34,499 nucleotides of DNA from Alteromonas naphthalenivorans (GTDB lineage Bacteria; Babelota; Babeliae; Babelales; CAIQNR01): contig JBLICC010000003.1 in assembly GCA_047631715.1 (NCBI GenBank), positions 1 to 34,499 of the forward strand, given 5' to 3'. Numbering within the stretch: position 1 is the first letter of the stretch; the number at the start of each line of letters is the position of its first letter. The notes beneath the pieces are model-generated. The model saw only the letters and a list, made by a program, of their open reading frames with translations. It did no database searches and was not told where the DNA came from. Below, in pieces: positions 1 through 25,465 of the stretch. Both the position numbers and the translations under genes were made by a program.

Positions 1-1338
1 CTCTGTTCTCAAGAACCAACTATGGTACTGAGGACTATTTTCTGCTTTTATTACATGCTCAGAACCGGTACTAATCGTTGCACCAGCTTTAAGACCGTAT
101 CTTGCTTCCCAACCAAATGTGTATGATAATTGATTTGTGCGGTTTTTAATCATGTTGTAATCATAAGTACGTGATGGAGTGTTATCTGTTGATTTAACCG
201 AGTCTTTTGATTTATGACGAAGCTGCATATATAATCGTGTATCAACTTTTTCTTTAAGCAACATACGATTACCAATTTCTAGATTCGCAATACCACCTCG
301 ACGACGAGCCACTTCGATAGCTGCATCTGCAAAAAATGGTACGAGTGAATCATAAAGAGTATACGCTGTGTCAATAGTCATTGTATGAATACCTGATGCT
401 GTTATAACATCATTGTCCGATAGCGACCCTGCTCCAGTACTTGTTTTTTGTTTTGGGACACGCATTTTTTCTGTATGTCTTAATGCTCCAAATACTTCAC
501 CCTTTAGATACGGACGCATGCAGCTTGTAAAGTCTAGCTCAAGCGCAAGGTTTACACCCACATAGTTAGCACCCCAACCACGAATCGCTGGCCATACAAT
601 GTTATGCGTATCACCTTGTGGCGCTCTTCTTACAAACTCGAATCCAAATTGTGCTTTTTGAACATCGTCATCCCAAGCATGACTGATATCAACTAAAGCA
701 AATATACGTGGAGACCCTAACCCAAACGTACGGTGCACATCATGCATAGTTAAACCTTTTGGTGCTAAAATCTCTTGCTCAATAAATGAATCCATGGTTG
801 CATTATTATTGAAGAAATATTGAAGATTCAAGTTATTGTCTCCCGCTTGAGTACCAAGCAGTCCAACACCAGTAAAATCATAACGCTTGTTAATATAATG
901 CTTATAATATTCAAACGGTAACTGAACACCAACCGTTAAATGCGTATCAGAATCAAACAAGGGAAGCGTTACAGACCCTTCGATACTTGTTTGAAAACGT
1001 TTTTCTTCAAAATCAAAATCAATAACAGCATTATTAATAGCTCTTATATAGTCATTTGTAGTTAAACTTGTATGACCTAATCCTGCAAGCATACTCAAAA
1101 AATAGATGTCTTTGATTTTAACTTGGCTTTTACCAAGTACCAATGTATGCAATGCAACTTGGTCTTTATTAGAGTCAAAGGCTCGGTATGCAAGGTCGTA
1201 TCGAACAGCCGGAGCCGAAAGATAACCATGCTTTCCAACATCCATGGGAAGACCAATCGTATTTGGCATATTCCACAGAGCATGAGCGCTCGTTGCACCT
1301 AAGAGCGCAACAGTTAAAAAGACAATCTGTTTTTTCAT
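1..1338 (-). CDS. Secreted probable outer-membrane beta-barrel protein (partial, runs off the window's left edge; absent from the ORF track)
   Basis: Manual translation from ATG 1338 is open for 446 codons to base 1: MKKQIVFLTVALLGATSAHA-LWNMP...THLTVGVQLPF...AQFGFEFV...YVGVNLALEL...YTFGWEARYG...ATISTGSEHVIKAENSPQYHSWFLRTE. It has a Sec signal (AHA), many alternating hydrophobic/polar strands and an AAGGA RBS. An in-frame alternative ATG with GGAG lies at 1371. Confidence 0.8.
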   Translation of the reverse strand, partial: MKKQIVFLTVALLGATSAHALWNMPNTIGLPMDVGKHGYLSAPAVRYDLAYRAFDSNKDQVALHTLVLGKSQVKIKDIYFLSMLAGLGHTSLTTNDYIRAINNAVIDFDFEEKRFQTSIEGSVTLPLFDSDTHLTVGVQLPFEYYKHYINKRYDFTGVGLLGTQAGDNNLNLQYFFNNNATMDSFIEQEILAPKGLTMHDVHRTFGLGSPRIFALVDISHAWDDDVQKAQFGFEFVRRAPQGDTHNIVWPAIRGWGANYVGVNLALELDFTSCMRPYLKGEVFGALRHTEKMRVPKQKTSTGAGSLSDNDVITASGIHTMTIDTAYTLYDSLVPFFADAAIEVARRRGGIANLEIGNRMLLKEKVDTRLYMQLRHKSKDSVKSTDNTPSRTYDYNMIKNRTNQLSYTFGWEARYGLKAGATISTGSEHVIKAENSPQYHSWFLRTE

Positions 1339-1384
1339 CGCTTTCCTTTTTTTAAAAACGCATATAATCATAATCTCTCCCTTA

Positions 1385-4300
1385 CTATACAGCTACCTGA
1401 GCACCATTTGCATCCGTAGTAATTCTTCTTTGTAATCCTGTTGAACTATCTACAATTACAACTTCTGTAACTTTAGAAAGAGCTATTGATTCACTCTTTG
1501 TAGCTCCTGCTCCAGTATCTTTATAGGTTTGTATAACTTGCTCAGTTGCAGTCAATTTAATTTGCTTAACCACATCTGTAGCCGCGCCATTTGCATCTGG
1601 AACGTTCAAGTACACAGCTGGGCAATTATCACCACAAGTATTTTGATATGCGTTTGCTGGATCTACAGACAACTTACGAACGGTTTCTGCCATAGTAAAG
1701 CTACCTACAAGATTCGTTTTTGTTAGCTTCATTTTATCATCTGTCGCAAATTGCATTGTTGGTTCAGCTGCAGTATTAATACCCTTAATATTAACAGTTG
1801 TTTTTGAACCATCACTGTTTTCAAACATTTGCACATTACCTGCAAGTGTTGTTGCATCCATAGTCAATGTTTCTACTTTACCATTCGGAGCTGCTGCTCC
1901 ATCAACTGAGTTAAATCGAGCACTTCCACTTGAAGCATCAAATTTACAATCTTCCCAATTAATACTGGTTTGGCAACCCGTTTCCCATTGGGAACCTGAT
2001 TCGAGAACAGTTGCAGATCCACCGGTCATATCATGTTGATATCTATCATCTGCAGCAGTTCCACCTACAAAATGACCACCCGCAGCAATGTTTTGTCTCC
2101 CACCATCGCCAAGCACCATTCTTCCAGTTCCTGATGTTCTTACGTCAGCTTTAATTCTATTAATGGCACCAGATTCATATCTCATTTCAGAGAAATCACC
2201 ACTACCAAAGTCCATAGTCATTTGTTCACCGAACGCACCAAAGTCCTGGAATCCTTTTCCAGAAAACTCAGTGTTTCCAAAATTATTAAATGCTGCACCA
2301 CTTACAGATTGAACTGAGTCCCTATCGCTAAAACTATGAGCAACTGTTTTACCCGCTTCTGTTGCAAAATCATCAAACCCAAAGTTTCCTGCTCCAGTGA
2401 ATGGACCACCGCCACCGCCGCCAAATCCACCTGCTGCTGTACCTGCAGATACGGAAGGAGCATTAGTCACAGCTGGACCAAAGGTTACTGGGAATCCTTT
2501 ATACTCAAGAGTACTTGTGGTACCACTTGGAGTTGTTGCTTCCCATTGACCAACATTAACGTAAAGTGGACCCATACGTGTACCAAGAGCAACACCATCG
2601 AGTACTATTTTTGCAGTACTATCTTCGAATACAATGTTACTCAATACTCCGTTACCATTAGCATCAGGAATTCCAAATGTTCCACCAAACTCATATGCGT
2701 TTGTGATAGTGAGTGTTTTACCAGATTTAATAGTCAACTTTGTATCAGGGAACATAAAGAAGCTTCCTTGACCGTTACCATCAAGTATGGTGTTTTCTAG
2801 AACATCAATGCTTCCTTTAAGCATAAACATGCCTCCATTAATTTTGATGGTTCCGTTTTTAACTGTTGCATTAACCGGTTTTTGGAATGTTGCTAACACA
2901 CAGTTTTGAACAGATCCTTCAGAATTATCACGGAATAGCGAGATACCATCACGTAGCATTAATCCTGTTTGGCAGTTTTGAGTAGAAAGAAAAGCTCCAC
3001 TGTATTGATTTTCTATATATTGCCCAAATGGATTGATCTTAATAAGTACACAACCTTCATCGGTACTAATAATAAGAATTTCACCACGCTCATCCCATTG
3101 AATATCATTTATTTTAGTAACGCCTGACATTGGAATAAACATAGGAATTGGGAACATTTGGCCTGTAAATGAATCAACATGATAAACTTGAATAGTTGTA
3201 CCATCGGCAACTGCAACTAAAGTCTCTTGCGGATGCGGTGCAATTTTTGCATCTGCATTTCCAAGCGGTTGAATACTTGGTGCATTGGTGATTGTCGGAG
3301 GTTGAGAACCACTTTGACGTACTTGCACAATACCCATTTCTCCACCACCAGCACGACTACTTGCCCATACAAGATTACGTACCGATTCTAATGAACCTTG
3401 TCCACCACGATCTTCTGCCATCCATTTTAGCTGGGTTGTAGCCAGCGATCCTGAAGCTGCAGATCGCACAGATGGTACTGCGATATTTACTACATTAGTT
3501 GTTACCGATGCGCTATTGTTTTTAACCGTACCGTTAGTTTCTACATTATAAAGAGCAATAAAGTCTTTACCACTTTCACCAGCAACACCATCAGTTAATG
3601 CAAGAGCTGCCCAGTTTTTGTTTTTCCATGCAGCGGCTGTTGCGGTAAGTGTTGTATCACTTGCTCCAATTCCTGTTGCTTTAAACTCACCTGCGTTGCT
3701 TGCAACTTTTGCAAATGTTGGAGTGTCTTTATCAGTAAAGTCATAAAGGTTTGCAATGGCACTGTTAGTAAATTTAGCTTGTGTTCCAGCTGCAACTACA
3801 AGTACTCCATATATCTTGTCACTACTGTTTGCGCCAGAACCTAGTCTAAATCCACCTGGTCTCCATGCAACTTGCGACACATCACCATCACGCATGCTTG
3901 CAGTTGTAATAGGTTGAGACACTTTTTCAGTTTGCGTACTCGACCACACAGTAGAAGTAGCACCAGTGTTAAATTCATCGACTCGAATAATAGAAGTACA
4001 TCCGTCTGCTCCATTACCACGGTTGCAATAACAGACCAAGTTACCATCACCAAGCGTTACACTATTCATAGTTTTTGCGAAGGCATTACCCTCAAGAGGC
4101 CCTGAACGACCTTGAGTATTATTTAATGTTATAGAGTCACCACCTGGCCACTCACCTGCATCTAAGAAGGTAAGTGTGTTGCCACCAAGTGCTAACTGAC
4201 GAGCTTTTAGATGCCCACGTACAGATCTATTTGCTTGCAGTGTAAGAAGGTTACCAGCAAAATCTTCTATGATTGCACCCGCATCACCACCACCGCCAGT

Positions 4301-6463
4301 TTCTCGACGAACAACAAATCGATCGTATTCTATTCTAAAGCCTTGGCCATCAACTCGACCGCCATTAACTTTATCAATTATTCCTCGATCCATAAATACA
4401 TCAGATTCAAGGATTGCAACTGCGCCATCAAGCTTAAGTGTTGTTGTATTATTACTATCCTGATTACCTGAAAATTGCACACTATCGAGATACTTTCTGG
4501 TAATACCACCAAACTGAAAACTTTCTCTTCCGCGCAATCCTTTAAATACAAGATTTTTAAGTGTTAATGTTTTTCCGTTTGCAATACTAATACGACCACC
4601 ATCAGGAACGGTAAGTGTAAATCCGTTACCTTCTATAATGGTATCATCTTGAATATCAAGAAACGAGTTGAGTGTTACATTATTATTAAGCACAAGACGG
4701 ACCTTACCCAATGAGCCACCAGCACTCAAACTACCTGCATCAAAACGGTTAATTACAAGATTTTGACTTGCTGTTGGTAAAGCCGCACGTAGAATTGCCT
4801 CGTTTTCAGCTTCTGGAGACCACCGTGCTGAATGCACATCTGCCCCTCTATCCATAGCTTGGAAAGAACTTATACCGCTTTGCTTATTTTCCAAAACGTC
4901 ATCTTTTTGAAAGTTAAACAAACGCATGCCACTATCAGTAGAAACAGTAAAGAGAGAACCACTTGGATGCCAATTTAAATCATGAACCACAAACCCGGTT
5001 GGAGTTGTACCTTCTGAAGTAGTACCCGTTGTAATCAATGCAGTTCCATCTAAGTATCCATCAAAGTGTCTGTAAAAACGTATACTTGCAGAAGCCGATG
5101 CATCAGGAACTCCATCACCATCATTTGCCGTAAAAATATTATTAAAAATTACACCAATAATATCACCATGTGGATGAAATGCTGCCGCTGCAATATTACT
5201 CAAACCATCTTTTGTCTGAGTATTATAAATAGCGCCATCTGCATCAATTTCATAAACATGCAGTTCTCCATTTGATGCAAGAGTAATTTTTGAACCATCA
5301 GGAGACCAACTCAAAACATTGTTCATTGGTTTAGAAAGTGTAGGCATACTTATATCTGGAATAAATGCTTCTACCTCACGCTCAACCACACCTGTTTTAG
5401 AAACTTGGAATATCTTTAATTTATATACATAACCAACTTCACTATCAGCATTGCTTTGACCATACAATATCGCCAAGAAGTTTCCTTGGTATGACGTGGT
5501 ACCAGTCCAACTGCCATGTGGTCTAAATGCCAATGCATATACAGAAGCAGCTTCATGTACATCTTCTGTATTATTCCAACCAATACGTGTTGCAGTGTAT
5601 ACTAACCCGGTTGCTCCTGGCTCTTGTGCTAATGCTAATGTTGCAGCATCACCATTAGTAGGGAAATTGAGTGGTTTATATTGTAATAAGTTAACGTTTG
5701 TAGGAACCCCTTTAACAGTGCCGGCTGTATAATTTTGCCCAACAGCAATGAGGTAATTTCCTTCAGAAGTTTTTTGTGGTGCACAACTTATACAAGAAAC
5801 AGAGTTATCACCACCTGAAGCTATACTTCCTGTTGAATAAGCATCTCTATTTAATGCCCCTGTACCAGTAACAATTGCTTCAGTTGTTATGGTTCCAGCT
5901 CCACTTGGCTCATAGCTATATGCTTCTAATCGATCATTCTTTGCGGATGCTCCAGTATGGAGAGCCAACATATATTTACCATCATAAGTCCAAGCACATG
6001 CAGTTACCGTATGTACCATATCAGTTGTAACAACCGTTGAAGTATTAGTTATATCAATTGTTGCCCCTGCAGGAAACCCTGTAGTCCGTGGTGCAAAAAC
6101 AATACGGTTATCGTTTCCATAAATGGTACCAATGGTATCAAATTGCCCTGTACCACTAAAAATAAGATCGTTATGTATTTGAAGGTTTTGATCGTTTAGA
6201 GATATCGCACCTTCCATTGGAAAGAGAGAGTACCAGCCGAGAGTATTTTTAGTTGCATCACTAGTAGTATTCATATCAATGTTTCCGCCAATCATAGTGA
6301 ATGGCCGCACATTTGAAGTTGTTCCGGGGCTATTCCCCGTTGCACCAAGTGCACTTACCGTTGAAACAACATACGTGCTGTTGTCAGCAGGTAGAGCCGC
6401 GAAAATGATTGACTGGACACATAATAGAACGGAAAGTAGGGAAACATATTTTATGCTTCTCAT
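1385..6463 (-). CDS. Large secreted surface protein with two WD40-like beta-propeller plus beta-helix modules
   Basis: 1692 aa with N-terminal signal peptide and AGGAG RBS. Propeller blade motifs: CAWTYDG, AFRPHG, LSWSPDG, AFHPHG, LNWHPSG, ARWSPE, then VAWRPGG, APHPQE, IQWDERG. Duplicated beta-helix segments: DDTIIEGNG..ISIANGKTLTLKN and ENTILDGNG..LTIKSGKTLTITN. Confidence 0.85.
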   Translation of the reverse strand: MRSIKYVSLLSVLLCVQSIIFAALPADNSTYVVSTVSALGATGNSPGTTSNVRPFTMIGGNIDMNTTSDATKNTLGWYSLFPMEGAISLNDQNLQIHNDLIFSGTGQFDTIGTIYGNDNRIVFAPRTTGFPAGATIDITNTSTVVTTDMVHTVTACAWTYDGKYMLALHTGASAKNDRLEAYSYEPSGAGTITTEAIVTGTGALNRDAYSTGSIASGGDNSVSCISCAPQKTSEGNYLIAVGQNYTAGTVKGVPTNVNLLQYKPLNFPTNGDAATLALAQEPGATGLVYTATRIGWNNTEDVHEAASVYALAFRPHGSWTGTTSYQGNFLAILYGQSNADSEVGYVYKLKIFQVSKTGVVEREVEAFIPDISMPTLSKPMNNVLSWSPDGSKITLASNGELHVYEIDADGAIYNTQTKDGLSNIAAAAFHPHGDIIGVIFNNIFTANDGDGVPDASASASIRFYRHFDGYLDGTALITTGTTSEGTTPTGFVVHDLNWHPSGSLFTVSTDSGMRLFNFQKDDVLENKQSGISSFQAMDRGADVHSARWSPEAENEAILRAALPTASQNLVINRFDAGSLSAGGSLGKVRLVLNNNVTLNSFLDIQDDTIIEGNGFTLTVPDGGRISIANGKTLTLKNLVFKGLRGRESFQFGGITRKYLDSVQFSGNQDSNNTTTLKLDGAVAILESDVFMDRGIIDKVNGGRVDGQGFRIEYDRFVVRRETGGGGDAGAIIEDFAGNLLTLQANRSVRGHLKARQLALGGNTLTFLDAGEWPGGDSITLNNTQGRSGPLEGNAFAKTMNSVTLGDGNLVCYCNRGNGADGCTSIIRVDEFNTGATSTVWSSTQTEKVSQPITTASMRDGDVSQVAWRPGGFRLGSGANSSDKIYGVLVVAAGTQAKFTNSAIANLYDFTDKDTPTFAKVASNAGEFKATGIGASDTTLTATAAAWKNKNWAALALTDGVAGESGKDFIALYNVETNGTVKNNSASVTTNVVNIAVPSVRSAASGSLATTQLKWMAEDRGGQGSLESVRNLVWASSRAGGGEMGIVQVRQSGSQPPTITNAPSIQPLGNADAKIAPHPQETLVAVADGTTIQVYHVDSFTGQMFPIPMFIPMSGVTKINDIQWDERGEILIISTDEGCVLIKINPFGQYIENQYSGAFLSTQNCQTGLMLRDGISLFRDNSEGSVQNCVLATFQKPVNATVKNGTIKINGGMFMLKGSIDVLENTILDGNGQGSFFMFPDTKLTIKSGKTLTITNAYEFGGTFGIPDANGNGVLSNIVFEDSTAKIVLDGVALGTRMGPLYVNVGQWEATTPSGTTSTLEYKGFPVTFGPAVTNAPSVSAGTAAGGFGGGGGGPFTGAGNFGFDDFATEAGKTVAHSFSDRDSVQSVSGAAFNNFGNTEFSGKGFQDFGAFGEQMTMDFGSGDFSEMRYESGAINRIKADVRTSGTGRMVLGDGGRQNIAAGGHFVGGTAADDRYQHDMTGGSATVLESGSQWETGCQTSINWEDCKFDASSGSARFNSVDGAAAPNGKVETLTMDATTLAGNVQMFENSDGSKTTVNIKGINTAAEPTMQFATDDKMKLTKTNLVGSFTMAETVRKLSVDPANAYQNTCGDNCPAVYLNVPDANGAATDVVKQIKLTATEQVIQTYKDTGAGATKSESIALSKVTEVVIVDSSTGLQRRITTDANGAQVAV

Positions 6464-6516
6464 GCGAGTTCTCCTTTTTTAGGTGAGATTTATTTACGAA
6501 AAGACTTTACTTTAGC

Positions 6517-6545
6517 ACCCTATGAAAGCGATATATCTCTGTCAA
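6517..6545 (-). promoter_or_regulatory. Putative sigma70 promoter for the propeller/beta-helix plus barrel operon
   Basis: Minus strand reads TTGACA (6545-6540), N17, TAGGGT (6522-6517), about 50 nt upstream of the ATG. Confidence 0.55.
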
Positions 6546-6570
6546 CACTTTTATTTTCTTTCAAAAAAAA

Positions 6571-6699
6571 TGATCCCTCGATACTATTTTTCACTTACGT
6601 CAAAAAATCACTCGGGATGAACTAATAAATTATTTTTTTAAATAACCAAGTTAACTAGTTCATTTCGAGTGATTTCGTAGAAATTGTATCGAGAAATCA
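6571..6699. repeat. REP-like inverted palindrome pair, copy 1
   Basis: Left arm TGATCCCTCGATAC..CACTCGGGATGAACTA, AT-rich spacer, right arm TAGTTCATTTCGAGTG-ATTTCGTAGAAATT-GTATCGAGAAATCA. Lies just downstream of the ileS stop. Confidence 0.85.
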
Positions 6700-6709
6700 G
6701 AATATTTTT

Positions 6710-9625
6710 TTAATTAACGGTACGTTCGACTACTGTTTTGCAACGAAGACAGAGTCCATCTTTATCACCAGAAGCTTCCCACTTCCAGCAACGGGGGCAT
6801 TTTGCACCATCCGCATGCTCAGCCTTAACTTTTAGACCAGCGCCTGATGGAATACAATCTGCAAATGCTTCGAAAGAGTCTTCATCAAAATCATCTTCTA
6901 AGTCATCTACATCTTCGTAATCAATAATCTGACAATCAGAAATAATGAAAAATTCTTTTAAGAACTCGTGCTTTGATTGGCCGGTTTTTTCAACTTCATC
7001 AAATAGCTCCTTTAGCAAGCTCATGTCGTCTTTTTTTGTGTCCATGACAATAGTCACCTTCGCTTCTAAAGAATGTTTAACAATCCCTTGCTGTCGTAAC
7101 TTTTCGATCGCTTTAAGCGCTGACGAACGTAAACTACGCAACAACTCCCACTGCTTTTCTTTTTTCTTGGCATATAAAATGGCTTTTTCTTGGCCACCAG
7201 TTTTAGCTGCCTGGTATTCCCATACAAAGGGAACGTCCCTAAAATCTTGTAAATGGATAGATTCAGGCTTATCTGCCTGATAATGGTCAGAAATCTGCTC
7301 TGCTGTAATCGACATTACTGGTGCCATAAGCCTGATTAAAACATCCAGGATATGCCAGCAAACAGTCTGTGCAGAGCGCCTATCAACCCCATCTGCTTGA
7401 TCAGTATAAAGCCGATCTTTTATGATGTCCAGATAAAAAGAACTCAGCTCTACGGTGCAATAATCGGTTAAGGCGTGGAATACTGCCGTAATATTTTTTT
7501 CTTCGTAGGCTTTTCTTACTTTTTGGCTAAACAAAGCAAGCTCATGGAGCGCATAACGATCCATCATACGCATGTCTTTAAGCTCAATAGCATCTTTTTT
7601 TATATCAAAATCATATAAATTAGAAAGTAAGAACCGAGCCGTATTTCTAACTTTTCGATTAACTTCACCAACATTACTTATAAGATTCTTAGAAACTGTA
7701 GCATCACCCTCAATATTAATAGCTGATACCCATAAACGTAGTCCATCTGTTCCAATTTGCTCAATAAGCTTATCTGGCGCCATAACATTACCCAACGACT
7801 TAGACATCTTACGGCCTTTGTCGTCAACCGTAAATCCATGAGTGGCAATGCCCTTCATAGCAGGCTTAGAATCGAGCATTAAGCTTGTAAGTAGAGAACT
7901 TTGGAACCAACCACGATGCTGATCGATACCTTCTAGATATAAATCTGCCGGATATTTTTGCCCACGCTCTTTAAGAACTGTGGTATGCGTTACGCCAGAA
8001 TCGAACCATACATCAAGAATGTCCTGTTCTTTTTTAAACTCAGTGCCCTTACATTCAGAACAGCTTAATCCAGCTGGAATAACTTCTTTTACATCAACAT
8101 CAGCCCAATACTCAACGCCCTCTTTTTCTATGCCTTGAGCAACAATTTTTATCAGCTCTGGAGAAGTATGCTCTTTATCGCAACCGATACAGATAACTGC
8201 AACAATAGGAGTTCCCCATACTCGTTGACGAGATAGGCACCACTCATAACGACTTGCAATCGTTGATTTTAAATGGTTACGTGTTGCTGCCGGCCAAAAC
8301 TTAATTGACTCAATAGCTTTAAGTGCACGTTTTTGTAGATCGTTATGCCCAAGTTCGCAGAACCATTGCTTGGTTGCTCTAAACATCAACCCATTTCTAC
8401 AACGCCAGCAATGTGGATACGGATGCTTAATAGATGCTTTGAATAATAATTTTTCTTTTTCGATAAGTTTTTTAAGTACCCATCCAAGCGCAGCGGTAAT
8501 CTCCATACCTTCTAATTCAACAGGCTTAATGCCTTCTGTATATTTACCATCACCACTTAATGGAGAGAAAATCTCGAGCCCATAACGAACACCCATCTCA
8601 TAATCTTCTGGTCCACAACCAGGAGCACTATGGACTACTGCTGTACCATCTTCGAGACCTACAAAATTATCTGCTAGTATTGGTGTTTTTTGACCTTCGA
8701 TAAAGGGATGATCTGCTGTTGACCCAACTAAATCTTCTGCTGTGCAGGTTGCTAGAACTTTCTTTTCTACACTCATAAGAGCGCAAAGCTTATCTGACAG
8801 TTTTGCACCAACTACCACTTGCTTGCCATTAACCTCTAAAAGCTCATACTCTGCTTTAGGTTTTAAGAACAAAGCACGGTTTAATGGGATAGTCCACGGT
8901 GTGGTTGTCCACATCAACATACTAACCGGCTTGTCTGTATTAAATACTTTTTGTGCGGCATCTTTATCGAGTTCAAACTCAACATATACCGACGGATCTT
9001 TTCGGTCTTTATGTTCGATCTCTGCTGATGCAAGAACGGTTTTACATGATGAACACCACGGAACTGTTTTGTTCTTTCGTGAAATGTATCCACCATCAAC
9101 ACAAGTTGCAAAAGCACGTACCGTATTAGCTTCTTGTTTATAATCCATAGTTAAATACGGATTATCCCAATCCATAAGCACACCAAGATCTTTAAACTGT
9201 TCTTTTTGTGCTTTAATCCAATGATTAGCACTTTCTCTACATTTTTTACGCAATTCTTGAGCATTAGCTTCTGGGTTCTCTTTAGAAACTTTTAGCTCAA
9301 TTGGTAGACCATGACAATCCCAACCTGGCGTAATTGGAACATGCTTACCAGCCATACGTTCTGATTTTGAGATAATATCTTTTAAAATTTTATTATATGC
9401 ATGCCCCAAATGGATGTTTCCATTGGCATAGGGTGGTCCATCGTGCAACAAGAATGCTGTCTTACCTTTGTTTTTTTCAAACGCTTTGGCATAAATATCG
9501 TCTTGCTTCCATCGATCAATAATTTTAGGATCTTCAATTTTAGAATTTCCACGAATAGGAAAGTCTGTAGTTGGAAGATTAAGCGTGTCTTTAAAGCTCT
9601 TTTTTGCCTTTTCGTCTTGAGCCAT
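6710..9625 (-). CDS. ileS: Isoleucine--tRNA ligase (bacterial IleRS1 type)
   Basis: Motifs HDGPPYANGNIHLGH (HIGH), GWDCHGLPIE, WTTTPWTIP, WCLSRQRVWG, LEGIDQHRGWFQSS, KMSKS and a C-terminal CPRCW..LCLRC zinc finger. Confidence 0.98.
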   Translation of the reverse strand: MAQDEKAKKSFKDTLNLPTTDFPIRGNSKIEDPKIIDRWKQDDIYAKAFEKNKGKTAFLLHDGPPYANGNIHLGHAYNKILKDIISKSERMAGKHVPITPGWDCHGLPIELKVSKENPEANAQELRKKCRESANHWIKAQKEQFKDLGVLMDWDNPYLTMDYKQEANTVRAFATCVDGGYISRKNKTVPWCSSCKTVLASAEIEHKDRKDPSVYVEFELDKDAAQKVFNTDKPVSMLMWTTTPWTIPLNRALFLKPKAEYELLEVNGKQVVVGAKLSDKLCALMSVEKKVLATCTAEDLVGSTADHPFIEGQKTPILADNFVGLEDGTAVVHSAPGCGPEDYEMGVRYGLEIFSPLSGDGKYTEGIKPVELEGMEITAALGWVLKKLIEKEKLLFKASIKHPYPHCWRCRNGLMFRATKQWFCELGHNDLQKRALKAIESIKFWPAATRNHLKSTIASRYEWCLSRQRVWGTPIVAVICIGCDKEHTSPELIKIVAQGIEKEGVEYWADVDVKEVIPAGLSCSECKGTEFKKEQDILDVWFDSGVTHTTVLKERGQKYPADLYLEGIDQHRGWFQSSLLTSLMLDSKPAMKGIATHGFTVDDKGRKMSKSLGNVMAPDKLIEQIGTDGLRLWVSAINIEGDATVSKNLISNVGEVNRKVRNTARFLLSNLYDFDIKKDAIELKDMRMMDRYALHELALFSQKVRKAYEEKNITAVFHALTDYCTVELSSFYLDIIKDRLYTDQADGVDRRSAQTVCWHILDVLIRLMAPVMSITAEQISDHYQADKPESIHLQDFRDVPFVWEYQAAKTGGQEKAILYAKKKEKQWELLRSLRSSALKAIEKLRQQGIVKHSLEAKVTIVMDTKKDDMSLLKELFDEVEKTGQSKHEFLKEFFIISDCQIIDYEDVDDLEDDFDEDSFEAFADCIPSGAGLKVKAEHADGAKCPRCWKWEASGDKDGLCLRCKTVVERTVN

Positions 9626-19000: not shown

Positions 19001-22000
19001 AAGTTGCCGTCTGGTAAATCTGCAACCGCTACATAGTCATGAGCCTGCCCATATTTTACAGCGCTTGTTGGTGTAACAGCATAAATATAGTTACCATTTG
19101 TAAGCCCTTCTCGATTAAGACTTAATGTTAGTTTACCAAAATAAATCGGATATAAACTTTTTTGTATTTGTTCTTGAGCAGATTGCATTGCAGTGTTCAA
19201 CGCATTTTGTAATGCCAGAGGAAGTGTTGCAAAAATAGCTTTTATACTTGTTCCACGAGCAACTCTTGAACCTACCTTACCTTGATTGTTTAAAGCTGCC
19301 ATAAGGATATCGTCTGTATTAAACCTTACCTGTACACCTGTTCTAACTGGCGGAGGAAACTTACCTTGAGGAGCCTGAGTACCACCCTTATACACATTTT
19401 GGCCAACTGGTTGCAGACTACAGTTGATGTCTCTCATATCTCCTCCAGAACATGCATAAGGAGAAGCTGATTTTAAGTACTGACCTTCTTTTGCTCCTGG
19501 TGGAACATATGGTGTATAAACTTGCCCGGTTCCTACATTAATAAGATAGTTACCCGCTACTATACTTGCATACGGTCGACCAATGTTTTTTAATTGATTA
19601 AGTGCAGTAACCATGCCATTTGCAGGCCCTTCTGCACATACAAAGATATCGTTTGGAGAGAACCCTGATGCTCGATAAAAGAAGTGACCTTTTGCAACAT
19701 CTTCTCTACTTGTAGCCGTAATATACACGTTATTAAATACTCGTTTTGTAAAGTTGAAAGGCCCCATAAACCCACTCTCTACCCAGTAGTTAGTAGCATC
19801 TTGTGACAAATTCCACTCTGTGTACGTTGCAAGAATACTTAGATATTTTTTTCCTTTTTTATTTCTACCAACAGACTCAGCAAATGCATAAAATGTTTTT
19901 TGTTTTCGTGGCCCACTGTTAGAACCTTTGGCTACTAGATCTTGTGATAGATTGAATCCAGAGAATGCTTCTGGCAACACACTCATAAGTGTTCCTGGAG
20001 TGCTTTTACCTATAGTAATACGTGTAGGTGCTTGACACGGTTGTGTTACAGGCCAATTCATGGTGGTACTGTGTATTGCTTGCTGTGATTTTCCAGACGG
20101 AGGAGCCGGAGCGGCAGATCCACCACCCGGACCAACACCTATAGAGTTAACATCCTGTTGGCAGTAAGATAATCCTGGGAAAAAGAGGTAATACAATGGT
20201 GGAACATCAAGAACCACAGAACTAGGCTTCCATGCTGTAACTCCTGGATGTGTATTAACAATTGCTTGCAACTTTTCATATCTATCTTGCGCTGCCGCTA
20301 AATTACTTGCTGTACCTTTTGTACTTTTTACAGATTGAATTCTGTTTATTAACTCTTCACTAAAACCTTTCGTTCTTAAAAATGCTGGTGTATGAGTAAG
20401 GCCATAATCTTTAGTTGCAGCAGAAAGACCTTTGAGCGAAGCAGTCTGGCTTTGGAATGCTAGACCATATTGGATTACTTCTTTTCTTGCCTTTTCGTAA
20501 GCTATTCTAAGGGGTTCATTAGTAATATATCTGTTATAGGGATTATAATGTGTTGGCATAAAGGCTGCACCCATATACACATTAGGAATAACTCTTATTT
20601 TTTGTGAAACTCTTTTGCCACCTTGTTTTGTAAAAATAGTAACTTCTTGCTCTTCAGGAGAACTGGCTTGCTCATACCCTTCACTTGTTTCGCCATGAAT
20701 AGGGAAATAAGATCCTTGGCTCAATGGCTTCATATTAACAGTGTACCAAAGAGGAAGGTCGTTAAGATCAACGTCATACCCTCGACCAGTAATTAAACTA
20801 AAGACTCCTTCTACTCCATGCGCATTTAATCCACCCGTAACTTGATCTGTTCCCAATGGCATAATTTGGAACGATCCTTCTTCTGCGCCACCTAAAGCTA
20901 TAACATAGTCTGTAAGTTTTTTATTTGTAGGAGATAGAGTACCATCACCATTTTTATGCGTTACTTGATAAATATAGAATTTTGATAAATAAGCTAATTT
21001 AGCTTTTTGGCTCCATTGTGTTTGCGATGCCTCTTGGCTTCCTTTACTAGAAGCGTTAGAAAGTATAGCAGCCATATCAGAAACAACTTTGTCTTCTTTA
21101 TTAATGGCGCTTCCTCCAAGAAGATCAGTAAGTGGCACTCGTGTAAACTTGTATCCACTGTATGTGGTAAATGGACCATTAACAGAATTTGATGTTGTAA
21201 AGTTTGTCATTGCCACAATCTGATTAACAATATTCATATCTCCGCCAGCTGCATTAAGTGCTTGTGAACGTGCTGCGGCTGCATAAGAAAAATCAACCTT
21301 ATCATCAGCAGTCATATAAGGAGTAAGTAACTTAACATCACTCATTGTTGTACCACTGGTATTTTCAACTGTTTGTTTTCCTTGTCCACTTCCCTGCTCA
21401 TAAGTAAGACCCGTTGTTAAACTAGAGATATATGTAATAGCTGGATTAACTACCAATTGCACTGTTGCAGCACCAGTTTTAACTGTTTTAGTTTTCCCAC
21501 TCTTATCAACAACTTGGCGTGATTGACCACCCACAACTTGCGGCACATAAAGTGGAACCATTTGTACTTGTGCATCTAAACAAATCACATACTCTTTAAG
21601 TGGCACATACGCATCTAATGTATTACGCAACAATGCATGAAGCGATGGAGTCATTACTCCAGCGTTTGCATGATCAGTAACAATTTCGTAAATATAAATA
21701 CCGCGTGCATTAATATTTTCTTCTATAGAAAAACCATATTCTGTTGTAGGAGCTTGTTGATCTTTAAGCTCTTCTGATACTTTTTCTTGTGCTTTTTTAA
21801 TGGCTATTATTTGATTAGTGTCAAAGAAAATATCTCCCGTCTTGGGATTAACAGACATAGTTTTATTAAACGCTTCGTTCTCATTTTTTAACTTTCCAAG
21901 TGCCTTTCGCAATGGCTCATTGACTTTGCCTTCGTAATTAATATCATTATTGAGCAATACATTTAAAAACCCGTTACCTTCCATTTGCTGTATTTTTAGA

Positions 22001-23799
22001 CCGCCAAATCCCTTTGGAGATGTTGGTGTTCTAAACTTACTAATTGCGTTATAAAACAACGGAGCTGGAGGTAATTTTTGACCAATACCAGCAAGTGCGT
22101 CTGCAACTTTTGGTCCACCTGCAGGAGTAGGAGACATAAAGAGTTTTCTAATAGTTGGATCGTTAAACGAGTGAGAATCTGATTTTGCCATTAAACTTGA
22201 TGAATCCATACGCACCCAATCGGCAGCACCAGCAGTATGAGAGAATGTTGTTGCACCAGCCATGTTTATAAATCTATTCACAAATGTTGAAATAGTGTCG
22301 ATCAGAGGGAATGTTGGTGCCCCTGCGCTATCTGCAGTACCGTTACCGGTAAAGTTCCAACCCGTATTTAGGTTGACCATTGCCCCAGTAAAGGTTGCGC
22401 TTCCAATATAGGTTGTTCCCCAATAAGTTGGTTGTGTTGCAGAACTCACATAGTAGTTAGCTGTTTTAAGATACGAAGGGTTAAAGTAACTTGCTGATTG
22501 TTTGTTGCTATCTGGTACTTCGCAGTACAAGAATGCTGAACTTGTTGCATCATTTTTATTAACAAGTTGCGGTGGAATCTGCAACCATAAATTACCAAAC
22601 TGTTGCGGAGCAGAAACTTCTTGATACAATGCTTCTTTTGCTTCAGCAGCAACTGTCATTTGATACAACGCACTTGGAACCGTAAAGGCCAGTGCTTGAC
22701 CAATTAACATGGCAAAGCCGGATACCACTGATTTTATAACGCGACCAATTGTTTTAACAGTGTCTTTAATTCCACGTCCTATTTTCCTAAGTACTGTCTT
22801 ATTATCTTCTATTTGTTTTTTAACACCTTCAACTTTTTCTTCTGCTGCTTTAAGTTCAGAGTCTGTAGCATCGCCTTTAGCGTGCCGAGCCCTTACTTGA
22901 TCAAGGTCGCTTGTTGCAGTATTAAGATCTTCATCAAGCTTTACGCCCCTTACTCTTATTCTTTCTACAGTACCTTTACCAGAAACCCAATCTGCGCCTC
23001 CACCAATACCATCTTCTGCATAATCTAAACCACGCCCTATTTTTTTTACAGTACGATCAGCCCAGTTTCCAGTATCTCTACCTCTTCGGGCTGCAGTTAA
23101 ATCGTCACCTTCTCGAACCATGCTATCAACTGTTTCTGTGATCTCTTTGTTAACGCCCTCGAGTTTTTCTTGCGTTTGCTTTTCCCCGAAAGTATCCCCT
23201 TTTGCTTGCTCATCTTTTAATCGTTCTTTTAATTCCGATTTTTGATCCTTAAGCTTCTTATACTTTTCTACTCTTTCTTCCGCAGGAGTTTTTTCTTTGC
23301 CGCCGCTTTCCTCAGGAGGCTTTTCGTCTCCGCCGGCTAAAAAATTATCGTCGCTGCCAGTTTCTGCTGGGCCTGTTGCGTCTGTTACATCTGCGGCATT
23401 ACGACCACCTGTAGTTCCTGCCTTGGCTACATCGGGATTATCTTGCTGATTTAAATCTGATGCAGTTGTATTATCTGACTGTGTAGCTGCTGCATCTGCA
23501 TTATGAATTTCCGTTTCTCCAGTTTTCCCAATGGTATTTAAGCTTTCAGTATCACCACTAGTTATAGTATTAGATTCATTCATAGTAGTATCGGTATTAG
23601 TACTTAAACCCGAATCATCTGTTGCTGTTGCACTATCCCTTAAATCAGCATCACCTACCCCATCAGTATCTTCACTCAATGAATCGGTTAGTCCACTTTC
23701 AACATCTGAAAGTCCCATTGCATAGAGTGGAGAGAATTGGATGAGTGGTGTGGCGGCTATGATAAGCGCCAGGAGAGTGAGATTTATTTTTATTTTCAT
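16087..23799 (-). CDS. Giant secreted hypothetical protein with dispersed internal repeats
   Basis: 2570-aa uninterrupted ORF. Architecture: signal peptide, acidic S/T/D-rich region, duplicated coiled coil, amphipathic then hydrophobic segment, repeated Y-I-Y..D-Y-V..S-L-x-T-G-x-x-Y modules and a Gln/Pro-rich tail. Confidence 0.9.
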   Translation of the reverse strand: MKIKINLTLLALIIAATPLIQFSPLYAMGLSDVESGLTDSLSEDTDGVGDADLRDSATATDDSGLSTNTDTTMNESNTITSGDTESLNTIGKTGETEIHNADAAATQSDNTTASDLNQQDNPDVAKAGTTGGRNAADVTDATGPAETGSDDNFLAGGDEKPPEESGGKEKTPAEERVEKYKKLKDQKSELKERLKDEQAKGDTFGEKQTQEKLEGVNKEITETVDSMVREGDDLTAARRGRDTGNWADRTVKKIGRGLDYAEDGIGGGADWVSGKGTVERIRVRGVKLDEDLNTATSDLDQVRARHAKGDATDSELKAAEEKVEGVKKQIEDNKTVLRKIGRGIKDTVKTIGRVIKSVVSGFAMLIGQALAFTVPSALYQMTVAAEAKEALYQEVSAPQQFGNLWLQIPPQLVNKNDATSSAFLYCEVPDSNKQSASYFNPSYLKTANYYVSSATQPTYWGTTYIGSATFTGAMVNLNTGWNFTGNGTADSAGAPTFPLIDTISTFVNRFINMAGATTFSHTAGAADWVRMDSSSLMAKSDSHSFNDPTIRKLFMSPTPAGGPKVADALAGIGQKLPPAPLFYNAISKFRTPTSPKGFGGLKIQQMEGNGFLNVLLNNDINYEGKVNEPLRKALGKLKNENEAFNKTMSVNPKTGDIFFDTNQIIAIKKAQEKVSEELKDQQAPTTEYGFSIEENINARGIYIYEIVTDHANAGVMTPSLHALLRNTLDAYVPLKEYVICLDAQVQMVPLYVPQVVGGQSRQVVDKSGKTKTVKTGAATVQLVVNPAITYISSLTTGLTYEQGSGQGKQTVENTSGTTMSDVKLLTPYMTADDKVDFSYAAAARSQALNAAGGDMNIVNQIVAMTNFTTSNSVNGPFTTYSGYKFTRVPLTDLLGGSAINKEDKVVSDMAAILSNASSKGSQEASQTQWSQKAKLAYLSKFYIYQVTHKNGDGTLSPTNKKLTDYVIALGGAEEGSFQIMPLGTDQVTGGLNAHGVEGVFSLITGRGYDVDLNDLPLWYTVNMKPLSQGSYFPIHGETSEGYEQASSPEEQEVTIFTKQGGKRVSQKIRVIPNVYMGAAFMPTHYNPYNRYITNEPLRIAYEKARKEVIQYGLAFQSQTASLKGLSAATKDYGLTHTPAFLRTKGFSEELINRIQSVKSTKGTASNLAAAQDRYEKLQAIVNTHPGVTAWKPSSVVLDVPPLYYLFFPGLSYCQQDVNSIGVGPGGGSAAPAPPSGKSQQAIHSTTMNWPVTQPCQAPTRITIGKSTPGTLMSVLPEAFSGFNLSQDLVAKGSNSGPRKQKTFYAFAESVGRNKKGKKYLSILATYTEWNLSQDATNYWVESGFMGPFNFTKRVFNNVYITATSREDVAKGHFFYRASGFSPNDIFVCAEGPANGMVTALNQLKNIGRPYASIVAGNYLINVGTGQVYTPYVPPGAKEGQYLKSASPYACSGGDMRDINCSLQPVGQNVYKGGTQAPQGKFPPPVRTGVQVRFNTDDILMAALNNQGKVGSRVARGTSIKAIFATLPLALQNALNTAMQSAQEQIQKSLYPIYFGKLTLSLNREGLTNGNYIYAVTPTSAVKYGQAHDYVAVADLPDGNFKGLGGKAITPYTKTLMSLVTGSVYTVSGQSIPNYLQSVVLAQNGGREGSVPSLLMQMIERSTKSKINPALAQRIMELNTLYIRQGKELQKEGSLLNSAPQLPIEALKHARAVTQPTIDDASVPSSHLITVGGEYFLQAKSVLAGTDKNKTQSLTTIFDFNATDQKRDSSLGVYYTLPKDKNSQFMVPTSALTGFELEAMRAAHGIAVAPNGEQEVTIPVTRIPLPLGPGEKTLIPDYGKDGRYMVNAKHINPVTNNAKGERYYYYYHIKTRAYYALVQDVTGNAYTKGESKAADNGYFVDLMSGDEYYVNGQPRMEQSSVAYALQKDERGEVVDVQQPLFMWGQANNSYGGQSLNVMANVGQGYSQYMYVQFSSVHKFQSSDKSKIMYLGYHVSGEGAGKQITPMRMMGSAQDPENLQRENLSVPKNIDTSGMTQSQVAELAYTSEVEQVMKAGWKLYRIDYDISPSGMQNGSVTFSEMTESMPKRYQMGNMQYVEGGIQGFKYPLAQTNKLTQALVYGRSFVAEGMGNRKGHTGIPTGIAALGTALCGVTSADSDAMIGFIPSMQSDFYVATQGTPRLGQFADYQSRSGGIQAIVTNYSLTGQKSASGVAIQSSYLGFRLDQQDEAIYGFAYSYASDKKLSDLKQSVNVFTNAEGHMQLVQEISATPRVNVSVPQGSIGSDYLIGFSNPVKRILYRIPPLRVAESYFEKDKTQYDTGDGSTARAFDLFKNMVSTYGVGTLVDYSSGAIFEPKKSDKKYLYPTGNTVSMQGLKLIRKQFKNATADPGSLRLTLPGSISRAIHYAQENKKPPMAPGARRELVAGHGTPQLMEQQSSRPPAAPRESEHGSGRPQSPPPNYRAPEQGHQKEQQQDSRGPQQQQQPQQEQQESNQPRAYQAPQQEQQQDSRGPQQQQQPQQQRQQDSDQPPAYQSPQRPEQRQAGLRMPTQSPRTALLDLGARIAAILRQPVII
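16240..16400 (-). repeat. 99-bp-period coding repeat (EQQQDSRGPQQQQQPQQ x2)
   Basis: GTGAATCTTG recurs at 16281 and 16380, with synonymous differences between the copies. Confidence 0.8.
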
Positions 23800-23980: not shown

Positions 23981-25465
23981 TTAATCTTCTTCGGTATACG
24001 TATCAGACACAAGAAACTTTTTAATAAACTTATAAAGTTCTGGACGGTCCATGATATCGTGAAAACGGCCAACAACTTTATCGCCACGCATTACAAGAAA
24101 ATGCGGCACATCTGGCACTTTGTACTTTTTGGTCATATCAAAAGCGTCCGCAGCATCAACTTTAAAGAAACGTACTTTGTTTACAAATTTTGCAGCTGCC
24201 CAATCGATAACTGGCATCATATGCATGCATGTAGGGCAGGCATCGGTATAAAAATCTAAGAAAACTAATTTTTCTGGAGAGTCTTTCATACGACGTCTAA
24301 TTTCTACATCACTATTAATGTGAGCCACTTCAATCTTTTTAATTGGTTTTTCGAAAAAGAACGGTTCCAATTTATTTTGTGCTGTTTGGTTATATCCTAA
24401 AGAACTCAACCACCACACCACATCAAGACCAGCTTTAATACCATCACCGGCTGCAACACCTGCTTGTCTATAGCGAGGATCGCACACATCACCAGCTGCT
24501 ACCACACCAGAATATGAAGTCTGTTGCGTTCTACCATCAATAACTAAATAATTGTTTTTATTGGTTTTTAAACTTTCTTTAAAAAGCTTAGTGTTTGGAT
24601 CGTGTCCAATTCCCAAGAACACTCCTGTGATTGGCCAATTTTCTATTTCTCCAGTTTTAGTATTTTTTACATCGATATTGGTTACGTGGTATCCATCACC
24701 TTTAACTTCGGTAATCGCTCGGTTATGCTCAATCACAATATTATGACACCCAAGCACTCGATCTACCATACTTGGAGAAGCTTTTAATATATCTCCTCGA
24801 ACCAAAATGGTAATATTTTTTGCATACGGAGAAAGTTCAATTGCTTCTTCCATAGCAGAATCACCACCACCAACAACCACCACATCGTGGTCTCGATGAT
24901 ACGGAGCATCACAAATTGCACAGGTTGTTACCCCACGCCCCCAATAGGTCTGCTCACCTTCAACATTAAGTCCTCGAGCCGTTGCCCCTGTTCCAATCAT
25001 GATTGCCATGGCATTAATAGTATGTCCTTCCTCGGTCTCTACCACATAGGGCCACTTAGAAAAATCAACCGAGCTGACTGTGTCATCCACCATGATGGAT
25101 CCAAAGCTTTCTGCCTGTTCTTGCTGCAGGGCAACAACATCTCCACCTTTTATACGCGTGATACCAGGCCAGTTTTCTATATATGAGGTTCCTGTTAGTT
25201 GCCCTCCTGGTTTATTACCTCGCAAGACCACTGTTCTTACTTTTGTCCGAGATCCATATAAGGCCGCACTCAATGAAGCAGGGCCCGATCCTATAACTAA
25301 AAAGGGAACCACATTATCGAGACCTTCAAGCTTTTTAAGCATAAATCCTTTTGTAGTCCAACCAGAAAGCTGTGGTTTTTTTAAATAACGCCAACCTCCT
25401 GCAACACCAAAACATACTAGTGTGACAAGACCCCAAATAATATATTGTGATGGCTTTTTTAACAT
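23981..25465 (-). CDS. trxB: Thioredoxin reductase-thioredoxin fusion with N-terminal membrane anchor
   Basis: Motifs VIGSGPA, GGQL..IENWPG, ATG-like GTGA, GRGVTTCAICD, VVGGGDSAMEEA, GIGHDPN and AAGDV..YRQA. C-terminal thioredoxin domain DFYTDACPTC..KVDA..VP. N-terminal TM YIIWGLVTLVCFGVAGGW. Confidence 0.92.
   Translation of the reverse strand: MLKKPSQYIIWGLVTLVCFGVAGGWRYLKKPQLSGWTTKGFMLKKLEGLDNVVPFLVIGSGPASLSAALYGSRTKVRTVVLRGNKPGGQLTGTSYIENWPGITRIKGGDVVALQQEQAESFGSIMVDDTVSSVDFSKWPYVVETEEGHTINAMAIMIGTGATARGLNVEGEQTYWGRGVTTCAICDAPYHRDHDVVVVGGGDSAMEEAIELSPYAKNITILVRGDILKASPSMVDRVLGCHNIVIEHNRAITEVKGDGYHVTNIDVKNTKTGEIENWPITGVFLGIGHDPNTKLFKESLKTNKNNYLVIDGRTQQTSYSGVVAAGDVCDPRYRQAGVAAGDGIKAGLDVVWWLSSLGYNQTAQNKLEPFFFEKPIKKIEVAHINSDVEIRRRMKDSPEKLVFLDFYTDACPTCMHMMPVIDWAAAKFVNKVRFFKVDAADAFDMTKKYKVPDVPHFLVMRGDKVVGRFHDIMDRPELYKFIKKFLVSDTYTEED

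Follow-up and report, generated by a model that had tools for sequence, protein, structure and literature searches.

The window analysed here is a stretch of 34,499 nucleotides (positions 1-34,499 of contig C3, GenBank JBLICC010000003.1) from a Dependentiae assembly of 845 kb (58 contigs, 90% complete), and it encodes a large secreted protein, termed the passenger, followed on the same strand by a stand-alone beta-barrel protein. The passenger (1692 residues) has a signal peptide and no barrel domain of its own, while the barrel (449 residues) is, judged from its predicted structure, very probably a 12-stranded outer-membrane barrel of the FapF/COG4313 class. The two proteins are probably functional partners, and the reading preferred here is that they form a two-gene export module in which the passenger is the client of the barrel (a probability of roughly 0.55 for the scheme as a whole). 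That the barrel itself is the translocation pore is a more tentative proposal, with the odds somewhat against it.

Dependentiae live as obligate parasites of protists, and their genomes measure about 1 Mb. For proteins of these bacteria, a conserved pairing of cargo with a FapF-like barrel would be one way across the outer membrane. In the cultured member Chromulinavorax, 44% of the proteins have signal peptides, and the passages of the report drawn on here describe the Sec step only (PMC6561590). In a full-text literature search, no description of such a pair from Dependentiae came up, nor one of a "split autotransporter" or of a FapF-like system that handles giant cargo. The pairing points to an undescribed mode of surface-protein export or anchoring, one that would carry the principle of FapF beyond small amyloid subunits to giant surface proteins rich in beta structure and that, as a simple two-gene system, would be testable in E. 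coli.

Predicted fold and family of the barrel

FapF is described as a plugged 12-stranded barrel of autotransporter-like type that stands alone and exports unfolded proteins, which are encoded by separate genes and delivered by Sec (PMC5557850), and the COG4313 protein Pput2725 (structure 4rl8) is put forward by its authors as an uptake channel for hydrophobic molecules (PMC4493636). The AlphaFold2 model of the window barrel, built on a 72-sequence alignment, has a mean predicted local distance difference test (pLDDT) score of 89.9 and a predicted template modelling score of 0.86 and, with its structural matches, bears out the preliminary description of the downstream protein as an outer-membrane barrel. 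Foldseek against the PDB is led by FapF (5o67, 5o65 and 5o68) and 4rl8 (E 5e-10 to 2e-8; best FapF match 4.6e-10), with autotransporter beta-domains, OmpG and FadL trailing at E 6e-6 or weaker. An independent structural search with VIA-align (48,161 chains) places 4rl8 first (Z 25.6; root-mean-square deviation (rmsd) 2.3 Å over 257/267 residues) and FapF 5o65 next to it (Z 24.5; 2.5 Å over 257/276 residues). The autotransporter barrels Hbp, NalP, BrkA, AIDA-I, EstA and EspP follow at Z 15.8-19.2 (Hbp 19.2, NalP 18.7, BrkA 18.2, AIDA-I 18.1), as does KdgM (17.7), and lower still are FadL (Z 13.5, rmsd 4.5 Å), a type IX translocon chain (11.9) and CdiB (9.5). The type V setting in which the barrel was initially placed is not supported by this ranking, since the FapF and COG4313 folds (Z 24.5-25.6) are closer to it than type V barrels (Z 15.8-19.2). 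An ordinary porin or a FadL-family protein had been named as the contrary outcome; the top match, a proposed uptake channel, touches on that outcome without amounting to it.

The barrel is taken to have 12 strands because nearly all of a 12-stranded barrel superposes on it at 2.3 Å; the number of strands, the side on which each loop lies and the occlusion of the pore are derived from DSSP and the structural alignments rather than from coordinates. The DSSP string fits 12 strands joined by periplasmic turns of 3-8 residues and, with the topology so assigned, by outward loops of about 50, 46, 22, 64, 18 and 5 residues. Three of these loops (about 50, 46 and 64 residues) are long, together comprising about 160 residues, and the topology as a whole would account for the approximately 180 residues beyond a minimal barrel. 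Strand 1 is preceded by 37 residues including the signal peptide (about 17 in the mature protein), with no helix after the signal peptide (DSSP residues 22-37). In the alignment with 4rl8, residue 27 of the model pairs with residue 2 of the chain, so the N-terminal segment is included. The suggested check for a terminal aromatic residue gives a phenylalanine (...EVGF), read from an overlapping contig (see below).

Sequence comparison alone gives the barrel no family name in Pfam or NCBIfam, and a sequence-profile search of the PDB returns chance-level matches (E >1). A word-index search finds a single relative (P0003, 71% identical), a scan of metagenomes finds none, and exhaustive phmmer recovers 122 proteins at E <=1e-3 (43 at <=1e-10), with no Pfam family covering the barrel in the 41 of these matches that were scanned. 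Among the 72 aligned members, the only recurrent Pfam match is PF13557 (Phenol_MetA_deg; 4/72, best E 0.022), for which the window barrel has no match at E up to 1. The autotransporter domain PF03797 is absent from all 72 members and from the window's 90%-complete genome. In line with the preliminary description, which recognised no POTRA domain, VRGY motif or TPS NPNG motif, the barrel has no POTRA, Omp85 or autotransporter signature: Pfam models for these and for two-partner secretion (TPS) match neither window protein (E up to 0.1) nor the 72 relatives. The family ends in phenylalanine in 67/72 members, and its predicted strand 5 (strands numbered from DSSP) is followed by P-[TS]-G (P in 66/72, T or S in 65/72, G in 47/72) at the position where FapF and Pput2725 have a PTG motif. 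At the level of sequence, the family is only faintly linked to the COG4313/FapF class.

Charged N-terminal extensions of 50-1000 residues ahead of the barrel are common in family members. Before strand 1, the extensions have a median of 65 and a maximum of 213 residues in the 72-member alignment, and reach about 1030 residues among the search matches. The longest relatives (10 of the 122 proteins are 720-1504 residues) were considered as passenger-barrel fusions and rejected, as their extensions are charged or repetitive and a profile of the cargo module described below matches 0/124 proteins. The window's own genome also holds a candidate second, different FapF/COG4313-like barrel, a 471-residue open frame at L091 (G000:C44; 340-609, minus strand) that scores 21.5 bits against PF13557 (cut-off 22 bits). 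Handles of this form denote loci (L), genomes (G) and contigs (C).

Pairing of barrels with large secreted proteins

The barrel protein as query has matches in 12 of 41 related genomes (the window's genome counted), and the family profile has matches at E up to 1e-5 in 135 of 201 genomes of the phylum, many of the weak ones covering only the last ~90 positions and probably representing other barrel families. Gene neighbourhoods were compared by naive open reading frame (ORF) calling and the barrel hidden Markov model at 49 loci, made up of the window, eight loci and the best full-length match of each of 40 further genomes; four loci with less than 1 kb upstream on the contig (G067, G022, G069 and G173) and genomes lower in the match list were excluded. 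The 49 loci contain 52 full-length barrel ORFs. A same-strand upstream neighbour is present for 50 of the 52, and in 47 of these 50 pairs the genes overlap or lie at most 62 nt apart; in two of the 50 cases the neighbour is another barrel (a tandem copy at L066). One or two genes upstream of the barrels lie 43 distinct large proteins (at least 480 residues, or at least 400 where truncated by the contig end), nearly all with a signal-peptide-like N-terminus. The pairing spans many families of the order. The neighbourhood survey and the reciprocal test below agree with the expectation of a tight linkage between barrel homologues and large secreted proteins throughout the phylum.

Many of the upstream proteins also share a C-terminal module of about 400 residues, detected in 40 upstream ORFs at 39 of the 49 loci by a jackhmmer search that started from the final 400 residues of one cargo. 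The cargo of G014, a genome of the window's clade, has this module. Its consensus ends F-x-I-x-x-x-G-x-R. A sharp sorting motif was sought at the C-terminus, and [GN]-x-R occurs in the last seven residues of 15/43 cargo proteins versus 15/713 other ORFs; as the shared module itself finishes in this way, the ending may be no more than a structural strand at the terminus. In a reciprocal test on five near-complete genomes, all six genes for the full module have a same-strand barrel within ~1.3 kb downstream, one of these barrels being a pseudogene with six in-frame stop codons, while 2/8 full-length barrels in the same genomes are without a module-bearing neighbour. The decayed barrel (G066:C1:1262377-1263776) adjoins an apparently intact 1277-residue cargo gene.

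An accidental arrangement, with a general porin encoded by coincidence behind a large secreted protein, is highly improbable. The window pair does follow the housekeeping genes ileS, murD and ftsW, but chance does not readily give a same-strand upstream neighbour for 50/52 barrels together with 6/6 reciprocal linkage across several families of the order.

A second alternative takes the barrel to be a COG4313-type importer of hydrophobic host molecules and the upstream protein to be a substrate-capturing co-receptor or merely co-transcribed. Host-dependent bacteria need lipids, Pput2725 is the best structural match (Z 25.6), the only recurrent Pfam match, albeit weak, is PF13557 (4/72, best E 0.022), and the window barrel is without a FapF-type extension. 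An importer nevertheless leaves unexplained why large secreted proteins with one shared C-terminal module consistently lie upstream, why there are up to seven barrel-profile matches in genomes of ~1 Mb and why three tandem copies follow one cargo gene; many family members, moreover, have long charged FapF-like N-terminal extensions. A role in uptake is considered quite unlikely.

Variations on the two-gene arrangement are found in several lineages. At L066 (G061:C21, 4227-9371), three full-length barrel paralogues stand in tandem immediately behind a single cargo gene (>1391 residues). A small gene (142-454 residues) lies between cargo and barrel in several lineages and may encode a third component; at L068, L069, L075, L078, L080, L084 and L018 it specifies a small signal-peptide protein whose C-terminus is often acidic (...ELDDDFDA), and it is absent from the window. 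At L065 (G087:C4) and L082 (G101:C1), runs of small (160-330 residues) signal-peptide proteins precede the barrels with no giant cargo, and possibly represent another class of client. FapF itself has small subunits as its substrates.

The order ileS, passenger, barrel is shared by the window, G014 and G002. Barrels of the window clade are 29-34% identical, and the passenger lengths are 619, 1531, >1137 and 1692 residues.

The passenger and the proposed export route

The sole Pfam match above cut-off on the passenger is ANAPC4_WD40 (PF12894; 28.2 bits versus a cut-off of 22.9; residues 492-530), with several other WD40 or propeller matches, all sub-threshold. An AlphaFold2 model of residues 1-1200 (nine sequences) has a mean pLDDT of 47.9, with values of 50-80 across residues ~150-560, and Foldseek places only 7-bladed WD40 propellers at the top (E ~1e-8, TMt up to 0.69). 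The model is too poor to judge residues 707-1082 and 1134-1200. An internal duplication relates residues 396-653 to residues 1038-1261 (BLASTP E 4e-7, 24% identity over 267 columns), the second copy being modelled below pLDDT 55, and in each copy the last propeller blades run into a ...GNG-x-L-x-V-x-x-GG-x-I... motif. This GNG-type motif occurs three times (~590-640, 1213-1263 and 1437-1502), and no other part of the passenger matches the profile of the cargo module from other lineages. Beta-helix-like parts are predicted from short DSSP strands and the thrice-repeated motif. The alternation of propeller and beta-helix modules given in the preliminary description is plausible on this basis: the first propeller is half-shown, and the remaining propeller and beta-helix parts are putative.

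The ends of the passenger connect it, at the C-terminus only tentatively, to other proteins of barrel clusters. Its N-terminal module is found at the same N-terminal position in several of them (phmmer E 1.4e-16 for L011_5, 9e-8 for L018_3 and up to 4e-4 for six more; also by BLASTP). The C-terminal region has a weak phmmer match to residues 941-1097 of L075_3 (E 4.6e-4), and the cargo-module profile gives a weak fourth domain at 1437-1502; the region is possibly a diverged copy of the cargo C-terminal module. The tail ...ITTDANGAQVAV resembles the family ending F-x-I-x-x-x-G-x-R with Q in place of R. ESM Atlas matches to the C-terminus score up to 0.81 (autotransporter and rOmpB passenger clusters), no more than chance may give, and are a lead only. 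A phmmer search (E 1e-3) finds no paralogue of the passenger in its own genome, and neither Pfam nor NCBIfam gives it a peptidase or Fap match. The window pair is atypical in that the barrel is extension-free and the propeller-bearing passenger has only faint traces of the cargo module.

In the proposed scheme, the pair would constitute a two-gene outer-membrane module in which both proteins, each with a signal peptide and thus a route through Sec, would reach the periplasm. The 449-residue protein would be inserted by the beta-barrel assembly machinery (BAM), as suggested by its C-terminal phenylalanine and two Omp85 genes in the genome, and would form the 12-stranded barrel of the FapF/COG4313 class. 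The all-beta passenger would be its dedicated client, most likely threaded unfolded through the barrel to fold outside, like FapF substrates and type Va passengers, and it may stay docked on the large outward loops. The barrel would on this scheme handle the passenger directly, transport would run outwards and the passenger would be exposed at the surface. A dedicated export or anchoring barrel is favoured because of the FapF-like fold, the position downstream of a putative substrate and the charged extension in many members. A broader proposal, in which a stand-alone FapF-class pore recognises the C-terminal module or tail of its neighbour and threads it out as a phylum-wide export system, appears doubtful.

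It is unlikely that the barrel serves as an anchor only, with the passenger exported by another path (e.g., secretin-based) and docked at the surface on the outward loops of the barrel. Such a role would draw on the two secretin genes of the genome and the three long loops predicted from DSSP (about 50, 46 and 64 residues), and closed rings such as WD40 propellers would better fit export in a folded state; PorP-like barrels that hold proteins of the type IX system with a C-terminal domain (CTD) of type B are a reported precedent (PMC9143113). The nearest characterised folds are, however, channels and translocators rather than passive anchors, and the tight pairing with module-sharing cargo fits export and anchoring equally. 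A complex prediction of barrel residues 22-446 (as an alignment) with passenger residues 1320-1692 (as a single sequence, whose own fold is uncertain) scored 0.00 in both runs and is uninformative either way.

Several observations weigh against export by the barrel. COG4313 is the top structural match and FapF is only 1.1 Z behind it, so the fold cannot tell import from export. WD40-like propellers would be unusual cargo for a narrow 12-stranded pore, and the two secretin genes offer another possible export route. The window barrel is without the N-terminal extension of FapF, and at the PTG columns it reads RAPQG, with P-Q-G displaced by two columns. The passengers of the window and of G002 fall outside the cargo-module set, the matches of the former being weak (E 4.6e-4; 1e-5 at Z=1), and at 7/49 loci the upstream proteins are small only. 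The barrel query matches 3/15 genomes of the same family only and has no homologue in the one genome of the same genus that was searched (95% complete). The linkage counts overstate independence, as the genomes are related by descent. Secretion by FapF is reported to need a periplasmic coiled coil and plug (PMC5557850).

The arrangement of the two genes (Table 1) looks like a single transcription unit, as a -35 box and ribosome-binding site lie upstream, no terminator-like site was found between the genes in the scan, and a strong hairpin follows the barrel stop. The passenger ORF begins MRSIKYVSLLSVLLCVQSIIFA..., with a hydrophobic N-terminus, and ends ...ANGAQVAV; its length, signal peptide, QVAV end and shared strand agree with the preliminary description, as does the lack of an own barrel, since the barrel-family profile matches the downstream ORF only. 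The barrel ORF (1..1371, minus strand) is open at the window edge. Its second ATG (1338) opens a standard signal peptide (MKKQIVFLTVALLGATSAHA...) and reproduces the 46-nt gap and 446 residues first described, the first ATG (1371) leaves a gap of 13 nt, and purine-rich stretches lie upstream of both. Contig C8 overlaps the window end by 154 nt with one mismatch and adds ...FLRTEVGF and a stop, which completes the 449 residues counted from MKKQ.

At the place of the single promoter proposed ahead of the pair, a perfect TTGACA box and a 17-nt spacer precede a -10 box, TAGGGT, that is weak (3/6 consensus positions) and left the site unlisted in the consensus promoter scan. The same scan finds promoter-like sites rarer than expected in positions 1-7000 (9 versus 21.5). 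On C8, a hairpin with a 20-bp stem starts 16 nt past the barrel stop and before a convergent gene. A 20-nt palindromic core, GACCGGTTTAAACGCCGGTC, has exactly two copies in the genome, each between convergent genes: one at L002 (C8) 182-229 after the barrel, where the site forms a 48-nt perfect hairpin, and one at window position ~28403 after the gene for an 889-residue AAA protein. The shared palindrome looks like a bidirectional terminator.

Table 1. Coordinates of the passenger-barrel pair and its parts in the window
Feature	Positions	Strand	Basis or remark
Promoter-like site (TTGACA 6545-6540, 17-nt spacer, weak -10 TAGGGT 6522-6517)	6517..6545	-	read from sequence
GGAG ribosome-binding site upstream of passenger	6474-6471	-	read from sequence
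Passenger gene, 1692 aa, signal peptide, end QVAV, without barrel domain	1385..6463	-	
Conserved N-terminal module of passenger, residues ~26-137	6053..6388	-	phmmer, BLASTP
WD40-like beta-propeller region 1, residues ~150-560	4784..6016	-	Pfam PF12894, AlphaFold2, Foldseek
Duplicated unit copy 1, residues 396-653 (last propeller blades and beta-helix-like start, IEGNGFTLTV...)	4505..5278	-	BLASTP
Duplicated unit copy 2, residues 1038-1261	2681..3352	-	BLASTP; weak Pfam beta-propeller match 1073-1143
Gly/Phe-rich low-complexity linker, residues ~1320-1400	2264..2506	-	read from translation
C-terminal region of passenger, residues ~1400-1692 (~290 residues)	1388..2263	-	weak matches
Barrel gene, 446 aa in window from MKKQ, signal peptide ending AHA	1..1338 (alternative start 1371)	-	last 3 codons and stop on contig C8

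Other ORFs of the window include a second giant protein (16087-23799, minus strand; 2570 residues) with no Pfam match at E up to 1e-3 and no adjacent barrel of this FapF-like family. A 494-residue fusion (23981-25465, minus strand) joins a thioredoxin-reductase-type flavoprotein (Pyr_redox_2) to a C-terminal thioredoxin domain. The 889-residue AAA protein (25674-28343, plus strand) matches the FtsH peptidase M41 domain over 39 residues only, below threshold, and could be a relative of FtsH whose protease domain is degenerate or missing. A 624-residue ORF (28447-30321, minus strand) is without a Pfam match and lies in the stretch of lowest GC content (29001-30000; 0.28 versus ~0.38 elsewhere).

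Comparison with known secretion and uptake systems

The two-gene export or display idea of the preliminary description is partly supported by the conserved pairing and the predicted barrel fold, with FapF rather than a split type V system as its closest model and a looser likeness to type Va or Vb secretion. Similarly to FapF, the window barrel has a predicted 12-stranded fold (Z 24.5) and is encoded downstream of a separately encoded, putative Sec-exported substrate, and many members of its family have charged N-terminal extensions; the family's P-[TS]-G after predicted strand 5 may correspond to the PTG motif of FapF. By contrast, the window barrel is without a coiled-coil extension, carries about 160 extra loop residues and has no detectable sequence similarity to solved structures. 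Its neighbours are the passenger, ileS, murD and ftsW, with no FapA-E or C39 peptidase nearby (Pfam on window ORFs), and the cargo is a giant all-beta protein versus the small amyloid subunits of FapF.

The COG4313 channels offer the best fold match (Z 25.6, 12 strands), the aligned part includes the segment that occupies the lumen in Pput2725, and 4/72 family members have weak matches to PF13557. The likeness is limited, as no member matches PF13557 at E 0.01 (best 0.022), the window barrel is about 180 residues longer, and no pairing with giant secreted proteins is known for COG4313 proteins. FadL/OmpP1 proteins are more distant, with no Pfam match and a superposition of Z 13.5 at 4.5 Å versus 25.6 at 2.3 Å for 4rl8.

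Type Va autotransporters share the 12-stranded barrel, as second-tier matches (Z 15.8-19.2), and the large beta-rich cargo, and the shared cargo C-terminal module may, by analogy, act in an autochaperone role. They differ in that passenger and barrel of the window are separate ORFs (a stop codon and 13 or 46 nt apart), a split that recurs at 49 loci. There is no PF03797 in the 72 members or the genome, no linker helix was identified, and the extensions of the long barrel relatives are charged or repetitive and without the cargo module. Type Vb systems likewise encode cargo and transporter in two adjacent genes; their TpsB, however, is a 16-stranded Omp85 barrel with POTRA domains, whereas the window pair has no Omp85, POTRA or TPS match in Pfam, and CdiB superposes at Z 9.5 only. 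In the type IX (PorP/SprF with type B CTD) and type XI (Slam) systems, as reported, a barrel gene lies beside a large surface-protein gene and the pairing is by a C-terminal domain (PMC9143113, PMC12282271); PorP/SprF and DUF560 do not figure in the list of 18 Pfam families for the 72 members, and the type IX chain is at Z 11.9.

Relative to these systems, the window adds a minimal barrel (no periplasmic extension) and a passenger with WD40-like propellers between beta-helix-like modules. If the broader, phylum-wide reading is true, the pair would correspond to type Va secretion in free-standing form and be an evolutionary link among COG4313 channels, FapF and autotransporters, and it would explain the presence of large adhesin-like surface proteins without a classical type V system.

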